Source: an uncultured virus (IMG/VR IMGVR_UViG_3300044645_000935)
Lineage: Duplodnaviria; Heunggongvirae; Uroviricota; Caudoviricetes; Crassvirales
IMG/VR virus record: IMGVR_UViG_3300044645_000935
Strand: one strand, 5' to 3'
DNA: 64,000 nucleotides
Each line of letters starts with the position of its first letter. The stretch's first letter is position 1. Both the position numbers and the translations under genes were made by a program. Below, piece by piece: positions 2,669-61,981 of the stretch. The notes below the pieces were generated by a model. That model searched no databases and had not been told where the DNA came from. It saw nothing but the letters and a program-made list of their open reading frames with translations.

Positions 2669-3000
2669 AAGACGCTTGTTACAAAAAAGTAAAGGCATCC
2701 TATGATGTGTTCCCCTCAGCTAGGGCATCACAGGCTATTGCAAAATGCCGAAAGGCATCCGGTAGTGTTAGGAAGTCAGAAGAAGGTACAAGCTTAAAGC
2801 GTTGGCAGAAAGAGAAGTGGCAAGATACTAAGACGGGTAAGGCTTGTGGTGCAGGAGGAAAGAACGAGTACTGCCGACCAACAACACGAGTGTCTTCAAA
2901 GACACCAAAGACTAAGAGTGAGATTAGCCCATCAAAGTTAGCTGCAAAAAAGGCTGAGAAGTCTAGAGTAGGCATGGGCAATAGAGTATCAAAAGTTTAA
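2665..3000 (+). CDS. Conserved basic phage protein (SLKRWxKEKW...YCRP type)
   Basis: Motif recognised; coupled ORF. Confidence 0.8.
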   Translation: MKDACYKKVKASYDVFPSARASQAIAKCRKASGSVRKSEEGTSLKRWQKEKWQDTKTGKACGAGGKNEYCRPTTRVSSKTPKTKSEISPSKLAAKKAEKSRVGMGNRVSKV

Positions 3001-3001
3001 T

Positions 3002-3009
3002 TATATTTG
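3002..3009 (+). promoter_or_regulatory. Bacteroidota -7 promoter element
   Basis: TATATTTG matches TAnnTTTG, intergenic just upstream of ATG 3019. Confidence 0.6.
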
Positions 3010-3018
3010 TATAAATCT

Positions 3019-3180
3019 ATGAAAAGCAAAGGACTAGGCGATACTATTGAGAAAGTCACAAAGGCTACAGGGATTAAGAAAGTCGTTGAAGCTGTTAGCG
3101 CAGCCACAGGAAAAGATTGTGGATGTAAAGCAAGAAGAGACGCATTAAATAGAGTGTTTCCATATTCAGAAAGCAAATAA
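3019..3180 (+). CDS. Small phage protein (MKSKGLGDTIEK...DCGC...LN type), 53 aa
   Basis: Read manually; recognised GLGDT/CGC motif. Confidence 0.8.
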   Translation: MKSKGLGDTIEKVTKATGIKKVVEAVSAATGKDCGCKARRDALNRVFPYSESK

Positions 3181-3185
3181 AAGAT

Positions 3186-3683
3186 ATGTCAGTTTTCAAA
3201 TCACAATTCTCACGAGCATTAAAAGTCCTAAAGAGTGACAATGCTAATGTTCCTTTTCCTGCTCCTGTAGTGTCAGGAACAAACACAAGCCTTGTGAATT
3301 TTCAGTTAGTAGACTCTAACGCAGATTTTATTAGTGCAGGTGTAAAAACAGGAGACATTGTTTATGGTAACACAGGCGGTAGTGCTGCAACTGTTGTTTC
3401 TGTAGATAGTGCAACAGTACTTGTTTTAAATACAACTATTTTTGGTTCAACAGGAGATTCTTATACTGTTTATCAGGCAAGTCCTCAAACTACTATTGGT
3501 AATCAAGGATGTAATCTTTACATTGGTAACAACGGTGGTGACCCCGTAAACGTAAAAGTTACCACTATTGGTGGTGATATTGTTACATTTTTCTTTGTTC
3601 CTGTAGGTACAGTTCTTCCTGTTCAAGTAATTAAGGTTTGGGAAACCGATACTACTGCTTCTCAAATTATAGCTCTTTGGTAA
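3186..3683 (+). CDS. Putative virion structural protein
   Basis: Beta-rich; C-terminal GTVLPVQVIKVWETDTTA motif; N-part resembles 20582 ORF insert. Confidence 0.65.
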   Translation: MSVFKSQFSRALKVLKSDNANVPFPAPVVSGTNTSLVNFQLVDSNADFISAGVKTGDIVYGNTGGSAATVVSVDSATVLVLNTTIFGSTGDSYTVYQASPQTTIGNQGCNLYIGNNGGDPVNVKVTTIGGDIVTFFFVPVGTVLPVQVIKVWETDTTASQIIALW

Positions 3684-34300: not shown

Positions 34301-37300
34301 GCGGGTATCCAAGAAGAAGTAGCCCCTAAAGTTGAGCTAACCGATGACCAAATCGTTGAGTACAATCCTACCGAAGAAGTATCAGATAAGAATAATGAGG
34401 TACTTGGTAAGGTGTTACAATCAAAGAAATTTGAGCCACAGGCAGAGCCACAAAGAACAGACCTTGGTGACTCAGTTGTATTTGAATACAACAACTTTGA
34501 TGATAATGAGACAAGAACTCGATTTACTTTTAATAAGAAAAAAGATGGAACTATTACAGGTGTTGGTGTAAAAGTAGAAAGAAATGTAGGAGATATTCGT
34601 AATACTGATTTATTCAGAAACTATGTAAACTCTAAGAGAGCAGAAGCAGAAGCACAGCCTGAGGTGACCGCTCAACCTACTGTAGCACCTCAACCTACTA
34701 CCCTTACTGAAGCAGAACAGCTTGCTAAAATGGAGGAGATGTTTGCGCAGGAAGAAGCTCCTGTCACTCCTACTGAACCCGCTAGAACTTCAGGAGTAAC
34801 TGTTGCTGACCCAATAGGAATGGACTCTTTGAGAAATAGAGTGAAGGACAACGCCAAGAAACAAGTTATTGACTTCGCTCAGAAGACATTGACTACATTG
34901 AAGTCTGTGCTTCCTGACTTTGAAATCGTAATACACGATGATGAGAACAGCTACAGAAATGCAATGGCTTCTATCAATGGTCCCGCTGAATCAGCAGGGT
35001 ACTTTTCTTATGTTCAAAGACCTAATGGTACTTATGTTGGCAAGATTGACATCAACCTTAACGTGGCTGATAATACAACAATTGCTCATGAGGTTGCGCA
35101 TGGTATAATGCGTAAAACATTTGGTGAGAACACAGAAGCTTTTAAGACTTTTAAGAATAGAGTTGCAGCAGCAATAAATAGAAAAGGTAATAAAGCATTA
35201 ACCGAATTTGCAAGTCAATATGAGGAGAATGATTCATACGAAGAGTACATAGTTGAGTTAGCTGCTAGGCTTTCTCAATCAGATAAAAATATATCTTCTA
35301 GTCTGTTACAGGATATTGCTTTAATAATAAATGACTTTGTATCTAGGATTACTAATGGAGCATTTGTTCCATTTCAAAATGCTAGAGATGCCAAGCAGGC
35401 TATTGATTTCCTTAGAAACATATCAGAGTCTATTAAGAAGGGTGAAGCAATTAACCCTGCTGACATTACAGCTATTCAGGAAAACCTATCTGCTCCTATT
35501 GGTACCCCAAGCGAAATCAATCCTGCCCCTAAGGGTAAGGCTTCTTTGAATTTCCCTAAGACTCCGCTTCCATTATCATTCGTTACCGAAGCAGATAAGA
35601 TTGACATCGAGGCTTTAATCGATGACATCGTAGCTAAGAAGCAGAAGGTATGGTTTTGGATGGCTGACCAACTAGGTCGTGGAAACTACTTTGATGAAGT
35701 GGTTGGTGATACGCATTACCTAGATGCGGGACCAAGCTTTGCACTAGACCCTGCCAACCGAAGCAAAGGAATCCTTTGGGCTAGTGGTCTACCTGAGAAA
35801 ACTTTGACGAATCAAATCAATCAGGCTGACTATATATTCTTTATTAGTGGCTCTCCTGAAAAGGCTAAGCTATTTAACAAAAGGGTATTAGACTTATTGG
35901 CTGAAAGAGTCAATAAGACATCAGACTTTAATAAGTTCAGAGAAGCTCTCAACAACTTTGAAAAAGAAACAGTAGAACTAAGAACTCTTAGAGACGCACT
36001 TAATGGAGTTAACTCATTCAAAGAGTTGGCTGATAGTCCAAAGAGAAAGCCATTTCTTATAGCACTTGGTCAAATAGGTGCATTGAAGACTGCACCTAAA
36101 GGTTCATTAAAAGAACTGCTAGGTTCATTCAATGCATTCATTGACTACAATGAATTGAGAGATGGTTTCTACAAAGAAAATGGATTCGGTCAAAACGATA
36201 TCATGCTTGTTGGTAAACCAACAGCAGTCTCAGGCAAAGCCCCTCACTCTACTTACGAGTTTGCTATTAGCGGTGAAGTAGTTGGTGTACCTGATAAGAA
36301 GATTGACTCTTGGGATATCATGCCTGAGTCAATCAAAGAAAAGTATAAGGATGTAATTGGCGGTAGAGAAGAAAAGACCAAGCCAATGCAGACTAAAGTT
36401 ATTGCTGCCGAGACAGGTGTAATTAGAGAGCTTGAGCCAAGAATGAAAGGTAAGGCTCAGCTGATTGGTAAAAAGGCTAGATTAGCAGGAGTAGTATTAC
36501 AAGATTATAATACAGCTCAAATATTAGAAAAGGAAGGAAAGTCACCTTTAGAAATCAGAAGAGCTACAGGTTGGGAAAGAGGAATAGATAAGAAGTGGAG
36601 ATATGAAATCCCTGATGGCAAATTTAAAAAATTTGAACTTGAAGATTTAAAGGAAGCAAAAGACTCTGATGGCGCTCAAATAAGAGTAGCTAAAATAACA
36701 GACATATTTGATTCTCCTGAATTGTATGAAGCATATCCATTTATCAAAAACTATAGGATAGTTTTTAAGGATATGCCTGAAAACAAGCATGGAAAACATA
36801 GTTCTTCTGCAAAGAAGATTACCATCAATAGCAAAAACTATATAGACCCCGATAAAAGAAGCGAGGCTGAGCTAACTATTATTCATGAACTTCAACACGC
36901 AATTCAGTATGAAGAATTATTTGAAAGAGGGGCAAGTACTAAGACCGCTAAAATTATTTTTGATGGGTTATTAAAGAATGCAAAAAATAATGTAGAAAGA
37001 AAAACACTTTTGCATGAAGCTGCAAGAAAACTTTTCCCTAATAGCGAAAGATTACAAAAGCCTACTAAAGATTTACTTCAGGATGCATTAAATAAATATG
37101 CTATTCTAGAACTATTAAGTTATAAGAAAGAAACAAAAGAGATAAAAAAGGAACTCGAAGAGTTACTAAAAGAATACAAAGAAGAACTTGATAAAGAAGT
37201 CTTTGAAAAACTTAAATCTAGAGTTGAATTTACACCTGCTGACGCTTACAATATTTATTACAGAGTTGCAGGAGAAGTTGAGGCAAGAAATGTTGAGTTC

Positions 37301-40300
37301 AGAAGAAGTCTTACTGAAGAACAAAGAAGAAATACATTATTATCTGAGACTGAAAATATCGATAGAGCTGACCAAATTCTTTTTGACAATCCCAAACTAA
37401 TGTTTGAAGGGGTTGAAGAATCAACTCAGAAGGTAAAAGGGAAAGCTCAACTTAGCAGTGATGCCAAAGCAATAAATGTTGTAAAGCAGGCACGTGCTCA
37501 GGGATTTTCTGAGAATGCAATTAGACAATTCCTTCAAGGAAAAGGTCTTACTGAAGAGGCTATAAATAAGGCAATGGCTACAGATATTCCTGCAGCAGGA
37601 AAAATCACGTTGTCCGAAGAGACTCTTAGTGGTTATGATTCTTTGATGAAGAAGCTAGGGAATCTAGCTGCGAAAGGAATGCCGCTTACTGAAGTAATTA
37701 AAAAGCTAAAGAACTCAAAAGCATACAAAGATTCTACTGACGTACAAAAAGAAAAGCTAGTACGTGAGGTTCGAAAGATGTTTGGAGCTAGAGAGAAGTC
37801 AGCTCCAAAAGCAGGTAGACTTATTGGCATCGTCAATGATGTCACTAAGATTACCATGACTGAAAAGGAAATCCTAAATAAAAGATTAAAGGACCTAGCA
37901 GAAGGAGCGAAGGATGCAGTAAAAGCTTGGAGAAAAATCACAGCTGATTTAGGTAAGGAAATTAAGGAACTAGCTTCAACAGGCAAGCTTACTTCAAAGC
38001 AAGTAACTAGAGTAACAACTAGGCTGTTAAACATAAATGCGTTCAATGAAAAGTCAGTAAAAGACTTCATTGACTACATGGCAAATGTATTTGCTGACGC
38101 TGAGTACCGTGATATAATAGATGGACTAAGAGGAAAGATAGCTAACGCTAAGAAAAACATTACCTCTAAGATTGGTATTGCTGATACGTTGCGAGGGCCA
38201 TTGAACAAATTGCTTTCAATAAATCCTTTGCTTATCCCTGACGCATACCTAGACAGATATGCTGAGATAGTTGAGATGCTTGGAGCTAGTCAGCAAGTTC
38301 TTCCACTAGAGCAGTATGATGTAGTAAAGAGTGATACTGAAGCCATCTTGCGTGCTGTTAATGACGAGCAGTCAAGAGCTTACGAGTTGGCTGATATCCT
38401 AGAAAATTCAGAGAACAAAGTTTTCACCAAGGGTGGTGAATTAGATTACGCTGCTACCTTAAAAGAAATGGTTAAGCAGGGTGAGATAACTGAGGAGGAT
38501 GCAGACCTTATGCGCAAGTATAAGAAAGAGATTGTGCCTCAGGATGAAAAGCAAAAGATGTCTGAAGAAGAAATAGAGGAGAAGAAGAAAGAAGCAATTG
38601 ACAAAATCAAAGCTTCAAAGATAACAGGCATTGATGGACTTCCTTCTCAAGAAGAGAAAGCTTTTGCTGAGAAATTTGCTGAGCTCATCAAAAATGTTTC
38701 TGAAGAAACTTTAATGAAGTTGGGACTTAATGATTTGACAAACCTATCCAAGGTAATTGACAACATTAACAAAAACTATCTTCCTAGTTTTGCTTATCAA
38801 GTATACCTAAAAATAGATGGTATAAATGATGGAAAGATTATTGAAGATGCTACAAGTAATGTTTCGCTTCCAAAGATTTCTACTGCGATAGGTAAAATTA
38901 AAAACCTAGTTACTAAGGAAGGTGCATTGTATGAAGCAGTCAAAAGAATACCTCTTTTCTTTATTGACCAAGCCCTTGGTCTTAAAAATAAAAAAGTATT
39001 TAATGCGTTGCTTTTAAAGACAGCTCAAGCTGAAGCGAAGTACAAAGCAGAACTGAAAAGAATCAATTCAGCATTAGAGAAAGCAGAGCAAAAGGTTGCT
39101 AGTTCATTTTCTTTTAACGAAGAAAAGTTAGCTCTATCTAAGATGAAGATGATGACTTATCTACGTCAACTTGAATTCGAATCAAATCAAGGTAACGAGC
39201 AAGTAAATCCTGCATTGGATTACATCAATAAAACCATAGAGCACATTGAGAAACAAAGAGCTGCTAAAAAGTATGGTAAAACTGACTTAGAAAACTTGAA
39301 GTTTATACGCTCGATGTATCAAATAGATGGGCAGATTAACCTTGAAAAATTGTACAATTCTTTTAATCAAGCTGAGAAGGATGCCATCAATGATATTCAA
39401 AAGATAAATGAAAGCCTTAGAAGTAAGGCTGAGTTTACTTCTAATGTCATGAGAGGTCAGGTATTTAATGGTTTGAATAATTACTTGCACCTAATTGTAT
39501 TAGGTGATGGTAAGAAGGGTGATATTAAATCAGCAACAGATATTACAAACAGAGCTGATAACAATATGAGACCATCAACAAAGGCTAAATCTTTGGAAGA
39601 AAGAACCAAGGGAGCGAAGCCTATTAACTTTGATGTATTTGCTTCAGCAAGTCGTGGTGCTAAGTATGTGTTGTTGGATTACAATCTTACAGGACCAATT
39701 AAAACTGCTAGAATTGCATTGAATCAACTTGAGAAAACTTTAGATGAAAGAAAGAATGTAACTAAAGTTCAAAGAGAAGTATCCAATACATTAACTAAAG
39801 CATACGAAGAGGCCGTAGATAATTTGCTTGTCAACAACATCATGGATGATACGACAGCAGACATAATCGTGGAATACATCAAAAGAATGGGATATCGTTC
39901 TGTGCTTGCAGGTACAGGAAGATTTACAGCTGAATTAGCCTCTAACATATCCTTTGCTTTTCTTGCTGAACCAAAAGCATTCACGTTAGGAACTAAATAT
40001 GCTAACATTATCATGTCTCCACTTGGACCATCCGTATTGGAGAACCTAAATAGTACTCAGATAAATAGAATATTCCCTGAGGATAGCCTATCAGGAAACT
40101 TCATGGACACTAGTGCTATGAAACAGAGAGTTGGCGGGGGTAAGCTATCTGATTCTCGTGTGATTAATAAAATTCAGCAGCTTTGGAATCTTACAGGTAA
40201 AAGATATACCAATGGGGTTGAGGTATTGTCAGATAACCTTATTTCAACTCCTGATAAAATTGTAATTAGAGCACTTTGGTTTGGCTCATTTGCTCAGGAG

Positions 40301-41641
40301 TTTAAGAAGGTATCAGGCAAGGATGTTGACTTTAAATTAATTGGCGAGAACAATAAGGAATATTTAAAAGAAAATAAGGAAGCCATCGATAAAGCAACAG
40401 AAATTGCTGACAGAACTTCTGTTCAAGCAGGTGCCACGGACAATACGTTCATGGGTATTCTTAAAGGAGCATCTAAACCGAATCAAACAATACCTACTAA
40501 GATTTACAATAACTTCAATAGTTACATGACTAGGTTCTTGATATTCGAATTTATGAGTGCGAGAACAGGTGTGTATGCAATGATGGGTGACGGACCAATG
40601 AGTAGAACTAAGGGAGCCATGTTGTTGGGTGCTGTTGCTACACGTATGACTGTATACTCTATGTTAAGCAAGATGCTTGCAGGTGGTATAATAGAATTGG
40701 CTGCTCCATTATTTGGTGTAGAAGATGAAGAAGAAGAGGAGGACGATAAAACATTCCTTCAAAGTCTAGGCCAAGCATTTATAGGTACGGTTGGCTCTTT
40801 GTTCTTTGGTCGAGACTTTGGTAACGCAGTAAAAATGTTTGTAAACTTTGGTCTAGAGAAGTTTAATCAAGAGTATCTTGACTTCCTAAGGGATGGAGAA
40901 TACGACCAATATGAAGATGCAATAGCGTATTCTATCATTCCACAAGGAAAAGAAGATAAGCAAAGCATAGATGATGTGCTATTTAAATTAGGAGGTTCTT
41001 TTGGTCCTGCTGTACAAACAGCAAGACTAGTAGGTGAGAACATATTGTCAGGTTCAGTACAGGCTGTGCTATCAGGAGATACTACTAAGAAAGAAGCAGA
41101 CGCTATAGAGCGTGAGAGAAGAGTAGTAACTCAGAGAATACCTCTAGAGATTCTAGGTAACGCAGGATTTATTCCTTTGTACAAAGATGTAAGGACAGTA
41201 GTGAACAAATCAATCTACGCAGACCTTAAAAATAAAAAGTCAAAAGCTGCTGAGCCGGGGGCTGCAAAAGAAAAGTTTGATAAGTTAGAAGACTTGAATG
41301 AATTAAAGAAGAAGACTACAAACAAAGATGAGCGGAAGGCTATCGACCAAAAGATTCTTGAGATTGTAGGAAGTGAAGAGGCTAAAGCTTCAGTTGATAA
41401 ACAGAAAGAAGCATTGAAGGCAAAGAAAGAATCTCTTCTTTATGACTCAAGCAAAGGTATTAGATATCGTAATGAGTCCACAATGAAGCGTCAGAATCCT
41501 GCTTTGTGGAGAAAAAGATTTGGACCTAATTCTGATTGGGATAAACAAACTAAAGCATCAGAATCTGTTGATAGTAAACTAAGAAAGGTTAGGGAGAAAA
41601 GAGAGGACAAGGAATACAAAGAAAAAACTAAGAGAAAATAA
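31328..41641 (+). CDS. Giant polyvalent ejection-type protein, 3437 aa (two HExxH zincin-like modules, LPD23-like segment)
   Basis: AHEVAH; TGWERGIDKKWRYEIPD; IHELQHAIQ...GEVEAR. Confidence 0.8.
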   Translation: MDELKKLYNTLVLKGRYNKSFEDFQSEWQNPQYQNQVYDDVSKLRLYTKDRDTFMKKYAGSAPAPAAVETPTAVEEEAVEQQPKKKDTTVLPSGVGSSASSVLAPDDETKALFKKYAEESSSRKTFADRIIPTTPATSPEFQKELKKVEQNKSLAESEFDKLGEKPKVEHNKYLNEQLAQINKDLIDKNEEFVVPEMEYRFGGLGFKFEEAGATGDWMDVTAPDGKKIQISLNNFLDSKSSEEAFKLQKFIQDNTPMKGLFVLEKSLKDQEVKIFSNQKEVDDEVAKINKEATAVNQKQKDFLLRQQAYEKEVDALNSIPESQRNNPEFIKRVDAAEKTRLSLVNELPTLLSEEQKLTNKASSLEKSVGRYVETKARQGGWLGGVGNSILEGISSIAAGTTNVFVDATMELGSAEFLISPENLRKGTIERASKIGVAPPSENQSIQDWKKTLTPEQLDRWEDEMDDFGKKLVKADIMPYIREGLRIRRGDENTTIEWTNLKQEGFWGGAILGLAKSLPAMIGSSTPAGWAQRTAQMYSQISDGLMQEMEKDPAFANISEVEKAAIVAPIGIASSVLEAYGLRNVLQSKGIVTNITMAMLGKAGRGVGYTSLRELAENEVKSKIARGALVLTAAGLAEGETGFLQQGVETGFKAIYNEYIKGDKYFQTPETIEKAVGEMFYAGAQEAIGGFTLGIPNAVSAAYSKAGFLKMNDKTFEMFENMANDETLQSAYITSLKEKVASGRISPSDAKQEEQNYRNAVGIYRQLPDGLTVQQKKEAMNLLKERKDLEQYIQGKDGALVTPQKNRINEINQELSKIAEQGATQKIQSEADNVKAQRAAKIAELSKAIEDDDTATELNLTTKLPTEERQRIEKELQDLKEEEASAQEREMANIPFEAPTYKVNGQEVKPEFIDYLMREYSKEEILAMNIEISNNDKTGVLERLQEFTGIKPTEQDAIQEQAAGQVPVQPTAGVGQEVEQGVSQAEPQVTAEAGIQEEVAPKVELTDDQIVEYNPTEEVSDKNNEVLGKVLQSKKFEPQAEPQRTDLGDSVVFEYNNFDDNETRTRFTFNKKKDGTITGVGVKVERNVGDIRNTDLFRNYVNSKRAEAEAQPEVTAQPTVAPQPTTLTEAEQLAKMEEMFAQEEAPVTPTEPARTSGVTVADPIGMDSLRNRVKDNAKKQVIDFAQKTLTTLKSVLPDFEIVIHDDENSYRNAMASINGPAESAGYFSYVQRPNGTYVGKIDINLNVADNTTIAHEVAHGIMRKTFGENTEAFKTFKNRVAAAINRKGNKALTEFASQYEENDSYEEYIVELAARLSQSDKNISSSLLQDIALIINDFVSRITNGAFVPFQNARDAKQAIDFLRNISESIKKGEAINPADITAIQENLSAPIGTPSEINPAPKGKASLNFPKTPLPLSFVTEADKIDIEALIDDIVAKKQKVWFWMADQLGRGNYFDEVVGDTHYLDAGPSFALDPANRSKGILWASGLPEKTLTNQINQADYIFFISGSPEKAKLFNKRVLDLLAERVNKTSDFNKFREALNNFEKETVELRTLRDALNGVNSFKELADSPKRKPFLIALGQIGALKTAPKGSLKELLGSFNAFIDYNELRDGFYKENGFGQNDIMLVGKPTAVSGKAPHSTYEFAISGEVVGVPDKKIDSWDIMPESIKEKYKDVIGGREEKTKPMQTKVIAAETGVIRELEPRMKGKAQLIGKKARLAGVVLQDYNTAQILEKEGKSPLEIRRATGWERGIDKKWRYEIPDGKFKKFELEDLKEAKDSDGAQIRVAKITDIFDSPELYEAYPFIKNYRIVFKDMPENKHGKHSSSAKKITINSKNYIDPDKRSEAELTIIHELQHAIQYEELFERGASTKTAKIIFDGLLKNAKNNVERKTLLHEAARKLFPNSERLQKPTKDLLQDALNKYAILELLSYKKETKEIKKELEELLKEYKEELDKEVFEKLKSRVEFTPADAYNIYYRVAGEVEARNVEFRRSLTEEQRRNTLLSETENIDRADQILFDNPKLMFEGVEESTQKVKGKAQLSSDAKAINVVKQARAQGFSENAIRQFLQGKGLTEEAINKAMATDIPAAGKITLSEETLSGYDSLMKKLGNLAAKGMPLTEVIKKLKNSKAYKDSTDVQKEKLVREVRKMFGAREKSAPKAGRLIGIVNDVTKITMTEKEILNKRLKDLAEGAKDAVKAWRKITADLGKEIKELASTGKLTSKQVTRVTTRLLNINAFNEKSVKDFIDYMANVFADAEYRDIIDGLRGKIANAKKNITSKIGIADTLRGPLNKLLSINPLLIPDAYLDRYAEIVEMLGASQQVLPLEQYDVVKSDTEAILRAVNDEQSRAYELADILENSENKVFTKGGELDYAATLKEMVKQGEITEEDADLMRKYKKEIVPQDEKQKMSEEEIEEKKKEAIDKIKASKITGIDGLPSQEEKAFAEKFAELIKNVSEETLMKLGLNDLTNLSKVIDNINKNYLPSFAYQVYLKIDGINDGKIIEDATSNVSLPKISTAIGKIKNLVTKEGALYEAVKRIPLFFIDQALGLKNKKVFNALLLKTAQAEAKYKAELKRINSALEKAEQKVASSFSFNEEKLALSKMKMMTYLRQLEFESNQGNEQVNPALDYINKTIEHIEKQRAAKKYGKTDLENLKFIRSMYQIDGQINLEKLYNSFNQAEKDAINDIQKINESLRSKAEFTSNVMRGQVFNGLNNYLHLIVLGDGKKGDIKSATDITNRADNNMRPSTKAKSLEERTKGAKPINFDVFASASRGAKYVLLDYNLTGPIKTARIALNQLEKTLDERKNVTKVQREVSNTLTKAYEEAVDNLLVNNIMDDTTADIIVEYIKRMGYRSVLAGTGRFTAELASNISFAFLAEPKAFTLGTKYANIIMSPLGPSVLENLNSTQINRIFPEDSLSGNFMDTSAMKQRVGGGKLSDSRVINKIQQLWNLTGKRYTNGVEVLSDNLISTPDKIVIRALWFGSFAQEFKKVSGKDVDFKLIGENNKEYLKENKEAIDKATEIADRTSVQAGATDNTFMGILKGASKPNQTIPTKIYNNFNSYMTRFLIFEFMSARTGVYAMMGDGPMSRTKGAMLLGAVATRMTVYSMLSKMLAGGIIELAAPLFGVEDEEEEEDDKTFLQSLGQAFIGTVGSLFFGRDFGNAVKMFVNFGLEKFNQEYLDFLRDGEYDQYEDAIAYSIIPQGKEDKQSIDDVLFKLGGSFGPAVQTARLVGENILSGSVQAVLSGDTTKKEADAIERERRVVTQRIPLEILGNAGFIPLYKDVRTVVNKSIYADLKNKKSKAAEPGAAKEKFDKLEDLNELKKKTTNKDERKAIDQKILEIVGSEEAKASVDKQKEALKAKKESLLYDSSKGIRYRNESTMKRQNPALWRKRFGPNSDWDKQTKASESVDSKLRKVREKREDKEYKEKTKRK
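34191..34322 (+). CDS. Overprinted 43-aa basic protein MPFKSKQQVKYLYSQQPELAKKW...KKK (+1 frame)
   Basis: ATG after A-rich leader; resembles recalled MPFKS..PE.AK.W small phage proteins. Confidence 0.7.
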   Translation: MPFKSKQQVKYLYSQQPELAKKWSKEYPKQNLKSLPKRVSKKK

Positions 41642-48385: not shown

Positions 48386-48438
48386 GCCTCAGTCTATTTG
48401 AACCAACCACCTACCTCTAAGGCTAAGCAGATGATTGG
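48386..48438 (-). promoter_or_regulatory. Predicted H-type pseudoknot in ssb leader
   Basis: 14-bp GU-containing stem; loop GCCUUAG pairs with downstream CUGAGGC. Confidence 0.6.
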
Positions 48439-48484
48439 ATATTTATCCAAATCGTGCATTAAATTACACTTTTGGCAATTTATG

Positions 48485-48560
48485 TAGTCAGGGCAGGACT
48501 CGAACCTGATAAGCAACCTCAAAGGATTTGGCTACCTTGCCGCATTACGCCCACCTGACT
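48485..48560 (-). ncRNA. tRNA-like RNA with non-canonical D and anticodon arms
   Basis: Acceptor AGUCAGG/CCUGACU, T-arm CAGG-UUCGAGU-CCUG; 11-nt central loop; no CCA. Confidence 0.65.
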
Positions 48561-48567
48561 AGTACTC

Positions 48568-49338
48568 TTAAATTAGGAACTCATCAATGAAGTAATTATC
48601 AATGTTGTCCGTAGGCTTGCTCCCGAAGTACTTAGAGAAGACTTCTATGGCTCGGGCTACCTTACGCTCACCTGACTCGATAAACTCGGGAGATGGCTTA
48701 AAAATACCTAGAACTCCTGTTGTCTTGTCAATGGCATAGAACACCAAAGGCTTACCAAATAATTGCTGATAAATATAACACTGCGAATCGTAGTTGTATG
48801 CCTTCGCTGAGTATTTAAATTTCTGAATGTCGCCTGTGGTCTTCAAGTCAATCAAGAAATCCTTACCAACGATGTCAGCCTTACCCTTCCACATCATCCC
48901 TTGAATCTGTCCCACAGCGGGAACCTCAAACTGATTACCCTCTCTGTAAATCTCATCGTAAAATGTGATATTGCTTTTCATAATACTAACCAACTCCCTC
49001 ACCTCATCCTGCTCTTTCTTTAGCATACAGAACGGAAGGTTATTTGTCTCGCAGTAGTTCTTGTACTCCTTGGTATTCCTAGTGCTCACATCAACGAAAG
49101 GTGTAGCCTCTGCCTTCTCAGGCTCAAGCAACAACTGATGGAAGAATCGCCCATCCATGAAAGCCTTGCTATCCTCTCTTGACTTACCGAATTCCTTCGG
49201 GTTTGTAAGCAAGGTCCCAATGTCTGAGTTTGATAGGTAGTTCTTGCCTACCCCACCATAGTACTCTTTGTCATCATTAAGGAGAGCCAAGATATTTGGC
49301 TCCCCTGTTAGGTCAATTGTCTCTAGCAATGTCTTCAT
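48568..49338 (-). CDS. RecE-like PD-(D/E)XK exonuclease (DUF3799-like)
   Basis: LSNSDI, WKGKAD, IDLKTT, YDSQCYIY. Confidence 0.8.
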   Translation of the reverse strand: MKTLLETIDLTGEPNILALLNDDKEYYGGVGKNYLSNSDIGTLLTNPKEFGKSREDSKAFMDGRFFHQLLLEPEKAEATPFVDVSTRNTKEYKNYCETNNLPFCMLKKEQDEVRELVSIMKSNITFYDEIYREGNQFEVPAVGQIQGMMWKGKADIVGKDFLIDLKTTGDIQKFKYSAKAYNYDSQCYIYQQLFGKPLVFYAIDKTTGVLGIFKPSPEFIESGERKVARAIEVFSKYFGSKPTDNIDNYFIDEFLI

Positions 49339-50255: not shown

Positions 50256-50558
50256 TTAAATAAATACTGCACGCTCTACTTCCTTGACTACTGATACGTA
50301 GTCCTTATCCTCTGCGATTCGTTTCTCGACCGCAGATATCCCATGAATAATTGAAGGATGCGAAATGCTGTACCCTGCATCATTCATGTACCGCTCGATG
50401 TAAGTAATTTGCATCGGTCTCTTGGCACATAGGTAGTAGACCAATTGTCTAGCGTCTACTATGGCCCGCTTCTTTGTCTTGGAGAAGAAGTCCTCCTTGG
50501 TAATACCGAACAGGTCCACGACCCGCTCTACGTACTGATTAAACACTTCATGTTTCAT
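50256..50558 (-). CDS. DnaA C-terminal-domain-like HTH protein
   Basis: SKTKKRAIVDARQLVYYL...SHPSIIHGI. Confidence 0.75.
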   Translation of the reverse strand: MKHEVFNQYVERVVDLFGITKEDFFSKTKKRAIVDARQLVYYLCAKRPMQITYIERYMNDAGYSISHPSIIHGISAVEKRIAEDKDYVSVVKEVERAVFI

Positions 50559-51542: not shown

Positions 51543-51887
51543 TTATTTTTGTTCTACTTTAAGACTTAATCCATGTTCATCAAGAAAAGTTATCACTTCA
51601 AGCAATCCCTTTTTACCAAAATTTCTTATTTTAATTAGGTCCCTTTCTGAGCGTTGAATTAAGTCCTCTAGTGTTCGTATATCATTGGCTTTAAAACAAT
51701 TGTACGTTCTAACAGAGAAATCTAATTTATAGATAGGGGTTTTAAGGAAGTCGTTTATTTCAAAAAACTTCTTTCTTTTTTCTTGATTACCATGGAATAG
51801 CATTATATCTATTACTTTTTCTGCTATTTTTTCAACTAATGTATCTACATCAACAGATGTAAATACTAAATTTTCAGTTCTGTTCAT
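51543..51887 (-). CDS. RNA polymerase alpha C-terminal domain homolog
   Basis: LDFSVRTYNCFKANDI..LIKIRNFGKKGLLEV matches alpha-CTD. Confidence 0.85.
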   Translation of the reverse strand: MNRTENLVFTSVDVDTLVEKIAEKVIDIMLFHGNQEKRKKFFEINDFLKTPIYKLDFSVRTYNCFKANDIRTLEDLIQRSERDLIKIRNFGKKGLLEVITFLDEHGLSLKVEQK

Positions 51888-52164
51888 TCTCTACTTGCTT
51901 TTTGATTTTTTGAATTAATTTGATTACTAAGTCCTGCTCTTTTGAAGTTATGTTGTCAGCATAGTACAACGCATCAGATACTGATTCTAGGGTGTGCTCG
52001 AGGTCCATGTTATCGGGCACCTCGATTGTGATTGTTACTTTCATTTGAATTTTTTGTAGATGATGTAAAATAAAAGACCTATGTGAAGGCCGATGTAAAT
52101 GGTAATGGCCAAGGGGACCGACACAAAAAAGAATTTTGCTAGGTCCCCCAAGATTGCCATGAAC

Positions 52165-53909: not shown

Positions 53910-53936
53910 GGTATTAAAATTTGCAGATTTATAATG

Positions 53937-53985
53937 CCGTTTCATCCTTTTGGAATCTTCAGTCGGGACACCCATCCCGATACGG
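53937..53985 (-). ncRNA. Type III hammerhead ribozyme
   Basis: CCG-UA^-UCGGGA-UGGGUG-UCCCGA-CUGAAGA-UUCC-AAAA-GGAU-GAAA-CGG. Confidence 0.8.
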
Positions 53986-54010
53986 GGGAGCCCATGCAGG
54001 GCCCCCGACC

Positions 54011-54649: not shown

Positions 54650-54671
54650 AGTTTTAGTTGTTTTAATATAT

Positions 54672-54968
54672 TTATATAGTTATATACTTTTTATAATCTA
54701 GTACTTCGTTATCGTCCATGTACCAAATCTTTTCACACTCGTTGAATGTCTTGAAATAGTAAACATCTTCCAATCTTGCACACATAAATATTGGCCGCTC
54801 AATTCCTTGATACATCATGTATGTTAATTCAATGCCATCCATGACTATCCAACATTGATTTTCCGATTCAGCCGTGTACTCAATTTTTCTTCCATTACAT
54901 TGCTGATAATAGATTTCAAACAATATCCGCATTTTTTGTTCGCTTGACATTTTATTAAAATTTTGCAT
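54672..54968 (-). CDS. Hypothetical early protein
   Basis: ORF track. Confidence 0.65.
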   Translation of the reverse strand: MQNFNKMSSEQKMRILFEIYYQQCNGRKIEYTAESENQCWIVMDGIELTYMMYQGIERPIFMCARLEDVYYFKTFNECEKIWYMDDNEVLDYKKYITI

Positions 54969-54976
54969 AGTTTTAG

Positions 54977-55246
54977 TTATTTTAAATAGCCTTCAATTTG
55001 TTTTAATACATTCCATGCCCCGCCATAACTTCGGTCTTTTTTGCCCGTATCTTGGCTGTATTTATGGTTGAAAAATACCTCAGCATTTTCATCTTGCCCA
55101 TAGACCATAAAGTTGTAATACACATGGGAATTTTTGCGATTCAACTTGAATCCAAATATTCTAAAGCCGTTATTTAAATCGGCCCAATGTATTCCCGTAA
55201 ATTTAGGATTACTACGTACGGATTTTTCTAATTCAAATAGTTTCAT
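54977..55246 (-). CDS. Hypothetical early protein
   Basis: Conserved leader AAACACCTAAAA. Confidence 0.7.
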   Translation of the reverse strand: MKLFELEKSVRSNPKFTGIHWADLNNGFRIFGFKLNRKNSHVYYNFMVYGQDENAEVFFNHKYSQDTGKKDRSYGGAWNVLKQIEGYLK

Positions 55247-55261
55247 GATTTTTTAGGTGTT

Positions 55262-55837
55262 TTAGTTATGGTATTTTAAAATGATTTTGCTAGAAATATT
55301 TGTCCCATTTAGGTAATTGGTACCAAAGGTTGAATCGAATTCATTAAGCAGGTCGTATACTTGGTCCTTAGTCCTGCAGGTACCAATCAAAAATGAGTTA
55401 GGGAATTTCATCTCCCAATCACTTCTTGGTGTATACTTTGTACATCTATGAGGGCCCCATAGGAAATATGGCTCGCAATTATATCCCTCATATACATCGA
55501 AGGCTTCTTGTTCCTCAGAATTAAGCAAAAGGATTACTTCAATTTCAGTTACATTTTGATTGATGCTTTTATAAAAATCAATCTTCCAAATTAGGAATTT
55601 CCATACTGCTTGATATACATCTTCTATGTAACCAAATGGGAGCACATTTTCTAACTGCTTTATGTACTCGGGAGCCAATGTAAACCATTTTTCTTCTCGC
55701 ATGATTTTAGCCACTACGGGCATAAGCCAATCCCATGATTCATGGTATTTTAATGCAGAGATTGAATCTTCTTTTGGCTTCATAAAATCAGCGATAACTA
55801 AGTTTTTTTGCTGAATACTGAATAGATTTTCGGTCAT
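55262..55837 (-). CDS. Hypothetical early protein (YHESWDWLMPVV motif)
   Basis: Recognised phage motif; conserved leader. Confidence 0.75.
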   Translation of the reverse strand: MTENLFSIQQKNLVIADFMKPKEDSISALKYHESWDWLMPVVAKIMREEKWFTLAPEYIKQLENVLPFGYIEDVYQAVWKFLIWKIDFYKSINQNVTEIEVILLLNSEEQEAFDVYEGYNCEPYFLWGPHRCTKYTPRSDWEMKFPNSFLIGTCRTKDQVYDLLNEFDSTFGTNYLNGTNISSKIILKYHN

Positions 55838-55877
55838 AATTTTAGGTGTTTAAGTTGATTAAATTGATTTAAAATTG

Positions 55878-55919
55878 CACCCTTTCGCAATCAAATGCCA
55901 CGCTCATAGGCGAAGGGTG
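55878..55919 (-). ncRNA. Three-way-junction motif, copy 1
   Basis: CACCCUU-[CGC CUAUGA GCG]-UG-[GCA UUUGAU UGC]-GA-AAGGGUG. Confidence 0.65.
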
Positions 55920-55924
55920 TATAC

Positions 55925-56152
55925 TTATTTTGCGACCTTCTCCAATTCCTCAATTAAATCCATTTTCCAATATCCGCACATATTTTCAACACCAAATATG
56001 GTCATTGCAAGGTCTTGAATCCCATAGGCTTTCCCCCTATAATGAGCCGACATTTTTTCGTCATTTTTTGAATCGAAATAATCGACCATGGTTGAATAAA
56101 CTCTAAGAGAACTTGCTAGTTCTTTTGCCAATGTTTTTTTGTTTACTTTCAT
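55925..56152 (-). CDS. Hypothetical early protein (start MKVNKK)
   Basis: ATG follows conserved leader. Confidence 0.7.
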   Translation of the reverse strand: MKVNKKTLAKELASSLRVYSTMVDYFDSKNDEKMSAHYRGKAYGIQDLAMTIFGVENMCGYWKMDLIEELEKVAK

Positions 56153-56187
56153 GATTTTTAGGTGTTTAAGTTGATAAATAAAGTTTG

Positions 56188-56231
56188 AACCAATGGAGGG
56201 ATTCGAACCCTCCTTAATTCCAAAATTGGTT
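56188..56231 (-). ncRNA. tRNA minihelix-like element (acceptor-like stem + T-arm)
   Basis: AACCAAU-11 nt-GGAGGG-UUCGAAU-CCCUCC-AUUGGUU. Confidence 0.65.
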
Positions 56232-56423
56232 TTATAAATTGACCTTGTTTGCAAGCCATAATTCATGGCCTGCAGTTATTAAGGAATCGGCCTGCCTAGT
56301 GGTAAGGCCAAGTTCTAGACCTATGCTTCGGGCTCCGTTACCAACTACATAGTTTAGATGGAAGCATTTTATTACTAGGTCTATGCCCCATTTTTTGATG
56401 GCGATTTTTGATTTGTTAGTCAT
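56232..56423 (-). CDS. Small HTH-like early protein
   Basis: ARSIGLELGLTTRQAD. Confidence 0.65.
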   Translation of the reverse strand: MTNKSKIAIKKWGIDLVIKCFHLNYVVGNGARSIGLELGLTTRQADSLITAGHELWLANKVNL

Positions 56424-56446
56424 GTTTTTTGGTGTTTAAGTTTAAA

Positions 56447-57157
56447 TTAATGCTCCAATATTTGGATATTTTTGGTGCCCTTTCTATGGCCACTGCAAAG
56501 GCCACATTTCTCGCACGTAGACTTGAAGCCCGCCTCTTTACTTGCAGGGCAAACTACAGCACCTACCAAGGGCTTGTCCGTAGCAATAAACGAACGGAAG
56601 CCTAGATTTTTTGCTTGGTTGGATTGGATTTCGCTGTGAGTCGAAGCCATGAAGTATACAGAGTAGTCGGGCTTTTTGGCCCATTGGTGAGTATATCCTG
56701 TATGGCTTTTGCTCGCTTTAACCATGTCAGATACTAGGTCCAATGGCACCAAAGTAGGCTCTCCATAGGTCCCAAATCGAATGTACTTGCCTGCAGACAT
56801 TTCAACTATTTTGCTTTCTAGCAAGTGCACAGAAGGGATTTCCTGCACGTTTTGAAACTCACGTGCAATTGATTTAAGCATAGAAACGAAGCCCGAATAC
56901 TGCTGATATTTATGGGTATAACATTTCAAGTAGGCTCTAAATGGGCAATCAAAACATACAGAGTCGGCAAGGTCAAAAAACGTTTTAGGCTCAATTTTTT
57001 TGCCGTTTTTTACCGACTCAGATACGTAGTTGAATTGAGAATCTGAGAAACTATATACCTGCAAAATTTTCTCTGTGCCATTTGAAATTTTGGCATTGGT
57101 GGTCCTGTCTAGTTTAAATACTAAAATGGCGCCATTTACTTTCGTAGTTACTCGCAT
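56447..57157 (-). CDS. Cys-rich Fe-S/radical-SAM-like (Gp88-like) protein (start MRVTTK)
   Basis: CFDCP..CY, IRFGTYGEP, TGYTHQW, CPA..CEKCGLC. Confidence 0.6.
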   Translation of the reverse strand: MRVTTKVNGAILVFKLDRTTNAKISNGTEKILQVYSFSDSQFNYVSESVKNGKKIEPKTFFDLADSVCFDCPFRAYLKCYTHKYQQYSGFVSMLKSIAREFQNVQEIPSVHLLESKIVEMSAGKYIRFGTYGEPTLVPLDLVSDMVKASKSHTGYTHQWAKKPDYSVYFMASTHSEIQSNQAKNLGFRSFIATDKPLVGAVVCPASKEAGFKSTCEKCGLCSGHRKGTKNIQILEH

Positions 57158-57187
57158 AGGTGTTTTGGTTTTGGTTAAATTAAAGTT

Positions 57188-57231
57188 TGGTTCCCGCTCG
57201 CAATCGAATGCCACATCTTAAATGGCGGGAA
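57188..57231 (-). ncRNA. Three-way-junction motif, copy 2 (ends in CCA)
   Basis: UUCCCGC-[CAUU UAA GAUG]-UG-[GCA UUCGAU UGC]-GA-GCGGGAA-CCA. Confidence 0.65.
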
Positions 57232-57238
57232 TATTTTT

Positions 57239-57457
57239 CTAGGCTAATCTAGGCACGAAGTGGTCGCAATCACTTCGCAGGCCATTATAGTCGTGCAGGA
57301 TTGTTTCAGCAACTTGGTAAGGAGCCAACACGTCAAGCAGGGCCAATTTTTCATAGTATGGCTCCAACTCCATGGCCATAAATGTGCACTCCCATGCACT
57401 TTTAGTTGATTTAAAATACTTCTCAATAATCAAGGCGGTCGCTAGTAAATTAGTCAT
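57239..57457 (-). CDS. Hypothetical early protein (start MTNLLA)
   Basis: ATG follows conserved leader. Confidence 0.65.
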   Translation of the reverse strand: MTNLLATALIIEKYFKSTKSAWECTFMAMELEPYYEKLALLDVLAPYQVAETILHDYNGLRSDCDHFVPRLA

Positions 57458-57916: not shown

Positions 57917-57982
57917 GTGTGTAAGTTGTTGATTTGTAGATAGTTAGATGATTTCTCGTATATCGGGCGTTTCCCGCATGTA

Positions 57983-58013
57983 CAATAGTAGTACTTTTCT
58001 TTATTCTGTGCAA
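57983..58013 (-). promoter_or_regulatory. Putative early promoter
   Basis: TTGC-N19-TACTATTG. Confidence 0.55.
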
Positions 58014-58059
58014 GTAGTGGCGCATTTTTTTTTCAATATCCCTGCAATTTTTTTTCTGT

Positions 58060-58400
58060 CAGTTAGTTAGTGCACTAACTATTGGGGCGCAAAGTTTATG
58101 CAGGACAGGGAAGGGAAGGGTATAAAGAGAAGCCTGCTTTCTTCTCGCTCTGTTCTGTATGGAGCGCAGGAGCGGGAGCGGGCATGAGTAATGAAGGGCC
58201 CGTAGTGGTGCCATGGACGTGGGACGTGGTGCCTGTGGTCCTGCAGACATGGGGCCTGCATGGGGCTCAAGGTCGCCATGGGAAAAGCCAAAAAATCTGC
58301 CATGCGCCAAGGGAATCGCACCCCCCCCCCTTCAAAAAAAAAGTCGTTTCCGCCACAGGCCCGGCTGCGCAGAACCGCTACCGAACCCCCACACTCTAAT
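58060..58400. other. GC-rich non-coding divergence region, candidate genome terminus/packaging site
   Basis: Between divergent arms; palindrome, CATG clusters, C and A runs. Confidence 0.45.
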
Positions 58401-58452
58401 TATCTAGTAAAATTTTTTACCTTTACGTAGTTGCAACTTAAACAAACTAGTT

Positions 58453-59860: not shown

Positions 59861-61489
59861 ATGGTAGAGACATCAGGATTGGGCTATTCGCCCAAGGACT
59901 TAAAGTTTGGTACTGAAGGCAGGACCAAATTGATTAACGGCATTGTAAAGATGTCGAAGGCTGTAAAGTCAACTCTCGGCCCTTCGGGTAACACGGTATT
60001 AATCGAGAGTGCAAACCACACACATGGTGTTACTGTTACTAAGGATGGCGTTACTGTCGCCAAGTCAATTGACTTGATTGACCCGGTAGAGAACCTTGCG
60101 GTTCGCATGATGAAGGAGGCGGCCGATAAGACTGCTACATCTGCGGGTGATGGTACGACTACTGCAATCGTGCTTACAGAGGGCTTGGTGCTTGGTGGGC
60201 TTGAGCGCATTACTGAGGACATGAACAGGACTGCTGTGTTGAGACACATGGTGGACATCAGTAACAAGGTGGTGGACAACTTAAGAAAGAAGAGCAAGAA
60301 GGTAACGACATCTATGTTAGTAGATGTGGCCGCTATTTCAGCAAACAATGACCGTGAGATTGGTAAGATTATTTCTGATGTATACAAAGAGGTTGGTAAG
60401 AACGGTGTTGTAACTGTAGAGAGAAGCCAAACGAATGAGACATACTCTGAGACCACCAAGGGATTGCAGATTAATAGGGGTTATTTGAGCCCATTGTTCA
60501 TCAATGATGCAAAAAAAGACGAGTGTATCTTTGATGATGTGATGGTATTGGTAGCTGACATTGAGATTGCCAACATTTTGCAGATTGAGAACGTGCTAAA
60601 ACCAATAATTTCAGAGGGAAAGAAGCTTTTGATTATTTCTCCATGCAATGTGAATGTGATTAACACGCTTGCGGCTAACAGTGTGAAGGGGAATTTGAAG
60701 GTTTGTGCTGTTCCTCCGCCAAATTTCGGATACAAGCAGCATGAATTGATGCAAGATATTGCGTTGAGTGTAGGAGCTACCTACTTTAGTGAGAAGACGG
60801 GTGATGATTTGAGTCGAATCAACTACGGTGACTTGGGTCATGCGGCAAAAGTTATTGTCAGCAAGGACAAAACCATCATTATTCGCAGTAACGCAAAAGT
60901 TGACCAAGGGTCAATTGACGAAAGGGTCAAGCAATTGTGGCAAGCACATGAGCAAGCTACTCGTAAGGCTGACAAAGACTTCATCTTGGAGCGTATTGCC
61001 TCACTTACAGGTGGCATTGGTGTTATTTTTGTAGGTGGTCAGACTGACATTGAGCAGAAAGAGTTGTATGACCGTGTTGATGACGCTGTGTGTGCGGTTC
61101 GTTCAGCTCTTGAGGAGGGTATATTGCCGGGGGCAGGAGTAGCATTGCTTAATGAGAGTGCTGAGATTCCATCTGTTCAGCATCCTCTTACTCATCCAAG
61201 CAAAGAGTATGTCGCTGCAGTAAGCATTGTCACTGAGGCATTGATGGCTCCGTTCCAACAGATACTTGCTAACGCAGGGTTAAAGCCAAGTGAAGTGTAT
61301 AAGATGGATATACCTATAGGTTACGGCTACAATGTCAAGACAGGACAGATGGGTGACCTTATTGAGATGGGTGTCATTGACCCGTTTAAGGTAACACGTA
61401 GCGCATTGCAAAACGCTGTCAGCGTGGCAACAACTATTCTATCAACTAACGCCATCATCACAATGGCACGGAGCTATGAGCAACAATAA
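59861..61489 (+). CDS. groEL: Chaperonin GroEL (phage-encoded)
   Basis: TLGPSG, TKDGVTVAK, AGDGTTTA, GILPGAG, GVIDP..V.RSAL. Confidence 0.95.
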   Translation: MVETSGLGYSPKDLKFGTEGRTKLINGIVKMSKAVKSTLGPSGNTVLIESANHTHGVTVTKDGVTVAKSIDLIDPVENLAVRMMKEAADKTATSAGDGTTTAIVLTEGLVLGGLERITEDMNRTAVLRHMVDISNKVVDNLRKKSKKVTTSMLVDVAAISANNDREIGKIISDVYKEVGKNGVVTVERSQTNETYSETTKGLQINRGYLSPLFINDAKKDECIFDDVMVLVADIEIANILQIENVLKPIISEGKKLLIISPCNVNVINTLAANSVKGNLKVCAVPPPNFGYKQHELMQDIALSVGATYFSEKTGDDLSRINYGDLGHAAKVIVSKDKTIIIRSNAKVDQGSIDERVKQLWQAHEQATRKADKDFILERIASLTGGIGVIFVGGQTDIEQKELYDRVDDAVCAVRSALEEGILPGAGVALLNESAEIPSVQHPLTHPSKEYVAAVSIVTEALMAPFQQILANAGLKPSEVYKMDIPIGYGYNVKTGQMGDLIEMGVIDPFKVTRSALQNAVSVATTILSTNAIITMARSYEQQ

Positions 61490-61727
61490 TATTCAACAAA
61501 TAATTGAGATGTATCCTGAAGAGACATTTCTTGTTGCTGATGGTTTTGATGATGCCATCATTGGCATTGACGAGGAGAACGGGAAGATTGTGTATGACAT
61601 TGACAAAGTCATCACAATACTGATGAGGGATGACATGAGCATGGACGAGGCTTATGAATTCTATTACTACAATATTGTTGGCTCTTATGTTGGCGACAAT
61701 ACTCCTATCTTTATAAGAACACTATGA
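61476..61727 (+). CDS. Conserved acidic phage protein (ADGFDDAIIG type)
   Basis: Recognised motif; between groEL and groES. Confidence 0.8.
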   Translation: MSNNNIQQIIEMYPEETFLVADGFDDAIIGIDEENGKIVYDIDKVITILMRDDMSMDEAYEFYYYNIVGSYVGDNTPIFIRTL

Positions 61728-61981
61728 GACCAATAGGGAAATACATTGTCGTTAGAGACATACAAGAAGAGGTTCGGACCGAGAGTGGTCTGATACTGTC
61801 GGGAGAAGATACCAATCAGCTAAGGTATAAGAGAGCTGAGGTGATAGCCCCGGGTACTGATGTTGATGTGATTGACGAGGGTGATGAGCTGTACTACGAC
61901 AAGGCACACAGCTTCACCATGTTGATTGACGATACGCAGTATACGATTATTCAAGAGAGAGATGTAGTAGTGGTGATTTAA
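61724..61981 (+). CDS. groES: Co-chaperonin GroES
   Basis: MRPIGKYIVV, TESGLIL mobile loop, EGD, ERDVVVVI. Confidence 0.9.
   Translation: MRPIGKYIVVRDIQEEVRTESGLILSGEDTNQLRYKRAEVIAPGTDVDVIDEGDELYYDKAHSFTMLIDDTQYTIIQERDVVVVI

Follow-up and report, generated by a model that had tools for sequence, protein, structure and literature searches.

Two short intergenic sequences on the minus strand of an uncultured virus (IMG/VR IMGVR_UViG_3300044645_000935) can be drawn as one and the same three-way junction although their stems differ in sequence, and the question is whether they represent a functional RNA, whether it belongs to a known family and what it could do between the genes. A preliminary description of the locus had placed the copies at 55878-55919 and 57191-57231 and had named a minimal tRNA mimic, a protein-binding site, a new ribozyme and an ssDNA recombination site as possibilities. 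By the window we mean the whole stretch of 64,000 nt that was analysed.

Two copies in an array of small genes

The window represents a dsDNA phage, in which Pfam and PHROGs recognise terminase, portal, structural protein, Sak, exonuclease VIII, primase, amidase and GroEL. The 472-aa virion structural protein matched 85 records, including 68 Flavobacterium and 15 Cellulophaga phages (45% to elemo phages), and because these matches are mostly to Flavobacterium and Cellulophaga phage records, we infer that the host belongs to the Bacteroidota.

Both copies are found among small genes of unknown function that form an array extending downwards from about 57900. Copy 2 (57191..57231) stands 7 nt after the stop codon of a 72-aa gene (57239..57457) and 33 nt before the ATG at 57157 of a 236-aa gene (56447..57157) that falls in phrog_2554, with no assigned function; the intervening leader (57158..57190) is A/C-rich. 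Copy 1 (55878..55919) stands 5 nt after the stop codon of a 75-aa gene (55925..56152) and 40 nt before the ATG at 55837 of a 191-aa gene (55262..55837) without a Pfam or PHROGs family. Its leader (55838..55877) is also A/C-rich, and the leader sequence recurs before several array genes (families D2-D4 and D6). All of these genes and leaders are on the minus strand.

In copy 1 (CACCCUU CGC-CUAUGA-GCG UG GCA UUUGAU UGC GA AAGGGUG) the closing stem P1 pairs 55919-55913 with 55884-55878, the side hairpin spans 55912-55901 (A19 at 55904) and is followed by UG at 55900-55899, and the T stem pairs 55898-55896 with 55889-55887 around a T-loop at 55895-55890 (U56 at 55893); C-A-A follows at 55877-55875. 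In copy 2 (UUCCCGC CAU-UUAAG-AUG UG GCA UUCGAU UGC GA GCGGGAA) P1 pairs 57231-57225 with 57197-57191, the side hairpin spans 57224-57214 (G19 at 57217), the T-loop is at 57208-57203 (C56 at 57206) and C-C-A follows at 57190-57188. An in-frame GUG start within the motif holds for copy 2 only and was taken as chance.

The coordinates and pairings first given are correct, the strand being minus. The copies had been said to share only the core; they do share it, but both also have C3, C4 and C5 opposite G, a C-G pair at the start of the side hairpin and a C directly after the stem. The closing stems do differ and still pair, with four of the seven pairs changed on both sides between the copies. 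This applies to the side hairpins as well, except that the 4-bp CAUU/GAUG version of copy 2 gives way to 3 bp with a 5-6-nt loop, as the fourth pair is C.A in 17 of 66 members.

The window contains two exact copies of the 16-nt core, and allowing up to three mismatches gives four matches against 0.71 expected. A structural descriptor matched the two copies in the window and nothing in 100 shuffled windows. Folded singly, the copies gave no three-way junction and were not significant against shuffles (z of -1.9 and -1.6). Two copies alone are thin evidence, and the support for the fold comes from the family alignment.

A family of elements in phage and metagenome contigs

Scans with the exact core returned 38 loci in IMG/VR, 19 of them with the full architecture, and 99 loci in metagenomes, 41 of them with the full architecture; none of the 34 loci in GTDB was structured. 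Variants were added by relaxed patterns and by a covariance model, R1, built from 35 distinct copies, to which copies 1 and 2, both in the training set, score 65.3 and 66.6 bits. By the structural descriptor the family has at least 70 distinct members, from contigs of phages or metagenomes; read backwards over 1.96 Mb of loci, the descriptor gave none. Outside the descriptor and uncounted are two members with far longer side hairpins of at least 22 nt, L011 (265-330, plus strand) and L308 (5392-5459, plus strand), along with the weak case L217.

In the alignment of the 35 distinct copies 99.2% of 490 cells are paired and 11 of the 14 pairs have two-sided changes. None of 500 shuffles reached the covariation score, slid controls were 21-51% paired, and RNAalifold returned the same three stems unaided. 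The alignment confirms the covarying three-way junction with a T-loop that had been proposed, and the further covarying homologs that had been called for were found in viral and metagenome contigs. Judged from these sequences, the element is a selected and apparently uncatalogued phage RNA family.

Members are 41-44 nt long and consist of a 7-bp stem, a 3-bp side hairpin and a T-loop arm, with no anticodon arm. The T arm is irregular and falls in two classes, either 3 bp with a U-G/R-N internal loop or 4 bp with a bulge, closed by a 6-nt loop; the sequence of its stem takes 11 forms in 66 elements. The classes differ in their 5' length and both keep a 12-nt 3' strand. With the spacing left free, 11 of the 12 structured distinct elements among the matches listed keep 12 nt from the T-loop to the end of the stem. 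At the base level, C3-G70 is present in 63 and C4-G69 in 61 of the 66 elements, and C-W-A follows the stem in 62. It should be noted that C73 was imposed in most scans; it was also present in all 12 elements of an unconstrained scan, among the matches listed. CCA directly after the stem, as in copy 2, occurs in 2 of 66 and was rejected as a conserved feature. The junction U-G is present in 65 of 66, a count largely imposed by the searches, and in 63 of 66 P1 runs into the side hairpin without an intervening unpaired base. The idea that U-A and G.G are invariant at the junction was rejected since the 3' junction bases vary (GA, AA, AC, AG, AU). A conserved 5' A-N-A flank was partly imposed by the search patterns and was weakened by C-rich flanks in a later set.

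Members were found only in phage or metagenome contigs, and the carriers include relatives of the window phage, a distant phage (L324) with six copies within about 6.5 kb, and a gut temperate phage (at least 40 matches) with a single copy. The RefSeq crAss-like phages cr7_1 and cr124_1 carry the element unannotated between two genes (30.8 bits), and the crAss-like phages have single copies, in the structural module; one such variant spans 51861-51908 of NC_055899. An annotated reverse transcriptase lies at 2695-3654 in cr7_1 (L543, NC_055895.1), about 2.3 kb upstream of the motif copy, and is absent there in cr124_1. A further carrier, G006 (L537), has 55% GC and Shine-Dalgarno-like leaders, for which reasons its host probably belongs to another phylum. 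By eye, two more intergenic three-way-junction-like hairpins are seen on the minus strand of G006, at about 9065-9015 and 8610-8550, with a CCCCTAG stem and different loops; neither obtained a score from R1.

No element was found by model search in 151 Bacteroidales genomes (40 candidates scored per genome), nor in 401 Bacteroidota genomes with the pattern for the 11-nt-hairpin class. The capsid relatives elemoF, Panino and MW202828 gave no motif match, and among loci with neighbours of the downstream gene the motif was present in only 2 of 15. BLASTP (E 1e-4) among five carrier phages, four of them incomplete or partial, revealed no common protein. A dedicated phage partner protein was rejected on this ground, and because these carriers share no protein in the comparison the partner of the element is probably a host factor.

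The elbow pair and comparison with known RNAs

We take the last two bases of the side loop and the third base of the T-loop to be R18, R19 and Y56 of the tRNA elbow, in tRNA numbering; in the tRNA elbow the pair 19-56 (G19-C56) joins the D-loop to the T-loop. In 50 elements, for which position 19 was never imposed and some scans required a pyrimidine or C at position 56, the last side-loop base and T-loop base 3 are G-C in 32, A-U in 18 and mismatched in none. When both positions were left free, the pair was kept in 10 of 10 fully paired distinct matches versus 5 of 14 unstructured ones. The window itself holds both types, A-U in copy 1 and G-C in copy 2, and the elements of L183 and L027 differ solely at the two pair bases. 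Fisher's test gives p 5.5e-14 for the pair when the relatedness of the sequences is ignored; the counts come from related sequences, in which only two closing-stem lineages (CACCUAC and AGCCGUU) hold both pair types. A later total of 52 G-C and 18 A-U includes a scan that imposed G and C and was not relied on. The side-loop base before position 19 is a purine in 66 of 66, again imposed in some scans.

Going by this covariation, the loop-loop pair is the G19-C56 elbow pair of tRNA, and we infer that the element rebuilds the top half of a tRNA, with an acceptor-like stem, a T-loop arm and a mini D hairpin docked via 19-56. The early suggestion of a minimal tRNA mimic accordingly stands on the elbow pair, the 7-bp stem and the 12-nt 3' strand, while the argument from CCA falls away. 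New here are the compact form with a non-canonical T arm and the direct covariation of the elbow pair.

Rfam 15 gave nothing at gathering score in the window and nothing over the motif at E up to 5-10, in line with the initial failure to place it in a known family, and ARAGORN returned no tRNA genes. The element matches tRNA (RF00005) in its 7-bp acceptor stem, in the 12-nt 3' strand from T-loop to position 72 and, by covariation (n=50), in the 19-56 pair. On the other hand tRNA is a cloverleaf with an anticodon arm and an encoded 3' NCCA, and we rejected the identification as a tRNA since the element has no anticodon arm, no conserved CCA and no RF00005 match.

Closer to the element are the t-elements, tRNA-like non-tRNA structures at mRNA and rRNA ends that are cut by RNase P and RNase Z, as described in sections of PMC1920247, PMC4326828 and PMC6546412. 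The mitochondrial ones were found via a GGTTCRANYCC T arm, and those mapped are about 55-74 nt long (Forner et al. 2007, PMC1920247, in part). The likeness lies in a tRNA-like fold with T arm and closing stem that is not a tRNA gene. The present element is shorter and occurs in phages; its T arm is irregular, its D-like hairpin has 3 bp and shows 19-56 covariation, and it is known from sequence alone. Copies 1 and 2 have GCA-UUYGAU-UGC in place of GGTTCRANYCC, and the canonical arm is seen only in the element at 56188-56231 discussed below. The element may act like a t-element, but with this T arm we do not file it as a member.

YrlA, in the passages available from Chen et al. 2014 (PMC4201824), has a tRNA-like domain with D, T and acceptor-like stems and a Ro60-binding part, and adjoins the Ro60 gene; RNase P cuts one YrlA whose acceptor stem has 7 bp, and phages encode some of these RNAs. 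The D-, T- and acceptor-like stems are shared by our element, which has no Ro60-binding part and sits between variable small genes. No Ro60 gene was found beside the copies, whose flanking genes fall in no Pfam family at either copy and are variable across members. The Ro60-binding GNCGAAN0-1G stem is likewise absent, as the 41-44-nt element closes without one, and there was no Rfam Y RNA match. With neither the Ro60-binding stem nor a Ro60 gene as neighbour, the identification with YrlA was rejected.

In the literature searched we found no description of the element. An unnamed candidate entry, above all for the gut variant, is possible in the alignments of Fremin 2021 (PMC8040213), Fremin 2023 (PMC10690425) and Weinberg 2017 (PMC5737381), each of which entered our search in part, and a term search of the accessible portion of a 2026 preprint on intergenic features (10.64898/2026.09.15.751765) gave no mention of tRNA or phage.

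Other RNA elements occupy gaps of the same strand. A third, related element with a canonical T arm, absent from the preliminary description, lies at 56188..56231, between the stop at 56232 and the ATG at 56152. It has a 7-bp stem with C3 and C4, an 11-nt connector and a 6-bp T arm with a UUCGAAU loop, followed by C-A-A, and it matches R1 weakly (9.1 bits, E 2.9). It has at least one identical (L466) and at least one covarying relative (L485), in a scan whose other structured matches were, among those listed, mostly real tRNA 3' halves or ambiguous. In a further intergenic gap, at 53934..53988, a type III hammerhead-like ribozyme scores 24.7 bits to RF00008 (E 0.002; gathering score 48.5). It has U.U at the base of stem II and a GC-rich hairpin just upstream, and covarying homologs in three other motif-carrying phage groups (L040/L373, L171 and L183). 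Further down the strand, a gap at 48485..48560 holds a degenerate tRNA-like sequence (RF00005 19.9 bits; gathering score 29) with an enlarged anticodon loop, on which ARAGORN was negative; it is missing from a relative's contig in run X1 (joint 48438-48581).

Possible roles between genes

The placement of the element follows the genes around it. A sense ATG lies within 50 nt in 84 of 94 distinct contexts (28% at random; antisense 9) and a sense stop within 25 nt in 63 (7% at random; antisense 6), and in 55 of these 63 the element is 4-11 nt past the stop. Identical elements precede unrelated genes, as with three unrelated N-termini after one element, and in a contig of run X1, which is probably DNA, copy 1 has another leader and other flanks (joint 54654 to 55871, loose end 55922). 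These two observations indicate that the element moves with gene shuffling.

The reading that we favour, at about an even chance of being right, is that the element is a t-element-like signal which host RNase P cuts to divide polycistronic mRNA. Transcribed inside such an mRNA, it would fold as a tRNA elbow, and host RNase P would cleave it at the 5' base; past C73, processing by RNase Z or exonucleases may follow. Separated in this way from the gene before it, the downstream mRNA would begin with a structured element or a new A-rich leader, and this new 5' end would set stability and translation for each gene, a mode of action likened to that of the t-elements of plant mitochondria and Haloferax. 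According to excerpts of PMC10731613 and PMC11143913, RNase P gauges how long acceptor and T stem are together and makes contact with the T-loop, and its substrates include some mRNAs and phage RNAs. The same excerpts name tmRNA, 4.5S RNA, the phage P1/P7 C4 RNA and the phage M3 RNA as non-tRNA substrates; tmRNA has RCCA with U(-1)/G(+1), and C4 RNA has a long stem without a T-loop. The element resembles these substrates, phage RNAs among them, in its acceptor/T-like helix and differs in having a T-loop elbow, in having no RCCA and in being repeated between genes. The RNase P reading is supported by the covarying stems and 19-56 pair, the fixed 12-nt 3' strand, the placement between stop and start, the finding of no protein common to the five carriers, and the nearly universal RNase P RNA (40 of 41 Bacteroidota genomes). 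Further support comes from the equivalent gaps of this array, which are filled by the canonical-T-arm element, with the same C3, C4 and C73-A-A, and by the hammerhead-like ribozyme.

Several observations count against it. The flanks preferred by RNase P, given as RCCA, G(+1) and U(-1) in the part of PMC10731613 at hand, are absent: RCCA is missing, and G at +1 is found in 4 and U at -1 in 7 of 66 elements. The irregular T arm weighs on the same side, as does RNase Z, which was above cut-off in only 30 of 61 Bacteroidota genomes. By the rules for three-way junctions, the lack of an unpaired base between P1 and the side hairpin favours stacking of P1 on the side hairpin and not on the T arm, which would spoil a 12-bp ruler. 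Lastly, C3-G70, C4-G69 and C73-W-A are not known determinants for RNase P.

These sequence-specific bases and poor flanks would suit a reader other than RNase P, and so would the tight spacing after the stop. The element could remain uncleaved and act in cis, its elbow fold stopping exonucleases or serving as the binding site of a conserved host factor (ribosome, RNA polymerase, elongation factor or tRNA-binding protein), with the purpose of coupling translation or preventing termination between short genes. We hold this to be on the unlikely side, as it leaves both the fixed 7-bp stem with its 12-nt 3' strand and the same ends on the canonical-T-arm form unaccounted for, and no common phage protein was found. 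Alternatively, the mRNA cut may be a by-product and the main product a released mini-tRNA of 42-45 nt, a trans-acting decoy for those host enzymes or defence toxins which read the elbow or the acceptor end of tRNA. Early-type gene arrays with several divergent copies in one genome, as in L324, the conserved acceptor signature, which resembles an identity element, and the limitation to phage and metagenome contigs would agree with a decoy. Such a decoy is nevertheless improbable, since the gut temperate phage has a single copy, as have the crAss-like phages in their structural module, and since the position is tied to stop and start codons; we know of no aminoacylation identity set that fits C3-G70, C4-G69 and C73.

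A new class of small self-cleaving ribozyme built on the tRNA-elbow contact, interchangeable with hammerheads and dividing the polycistronic transcript without host enzymes, would find some support in the hammerhead-like ribozymes that fill comparable gaps in these phages. Hammerheads are typically three-way junctions docked through their loops, and the junction U-G, largely imposed as it is, would be in keeping with this. It seems quite improbable all the same: few unpaired bases beyond the T-loop are conserved, the 3' junction bases vary, the canonical-T-arm relative does without the junction, and no Rfam 15 ribozyme family matches the motif. For a DNA-level element, either a site of recombination and shuffling or a hairpin promoter/terminator cassette, one can point to the identical elements ahead of unrelated genes, to the X1 contig with its other leader and flanks, and to the Sak and exonuclease VIII encoded by the phage. 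The PeSL cassettes of T4-type phages, which combine a sigma-70 promoter with a terminator hairpin (Arbiol et al. 2010, PMC2839356, in part), are comparable as repeated intergenic cassettes past stop codons in small variable gene arrays with gene shuffling. At neither copy did a search of the minus strand for promoters or terminators give a match, a sigma-70-like promoter included; of 50 elements, one has the Bacteroidota promoter box TAnnTTTG upstream and one a U-tract downstream, and the conserved feature of the element is a tertiary RNA contact. As no sigma-70-like promoter was found at either copy, identity with PeSLs was rejected. In duplex DNA the 19-56 pair and the T-loop would have no role, the sense orientation is strict, and the shuffling would more plausibly be a by-product of repeats, so that we regard a DNA-level function as very improbable; the ssDNA recombination site proposed earlier is, as a selected function, unlikely for the same conserved loop-loop pair and orientation.

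Should the RNase P reading be right, unrelated dsDNA phages, crAss-like gut phages included, would process their mRNA by organelle-style tRNA punctuation with a host enzyme, a layer of phage gene control that annotation has overlooked. The element would then also be a very small natural mimic of the tRNA elbow, which the compensatory pair makes directly testable. Bacteroidota expression systems lack Shine-Dalgarno control, and the element is a possible 41-nt portable processing tag for them.

Some other features of the window were recorded. Minus-strand genes at 51543-51887 and 50256-50558 encode a stand-alone homolog of the RNA polymerase alpha C-terminal domain (PF03118, E 3e-21) and a protein with a DnaA C-terminal HTH (PF08299), possible regulators of host takeover. 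A 3437-aa protein on the plus strand (31328-41641) has an LPD23 domain and is otherwise mostly without family. The phage-encoded GroEL (59861-61981, plus strand) is followed by a GroES-like ORF, as seen by eye, and GroEL-like ORFs adjoin the motif array also in L308, L318 and L355. At the point where transcription diverges, 57950-58420 is a GC-rich non-coding stretch with runs of G and A; one contig of run X1 covers it at a depth of 242, compared with less than 11 elsewhere, and it is possibly a genome end or origin region common to an abundant relative.
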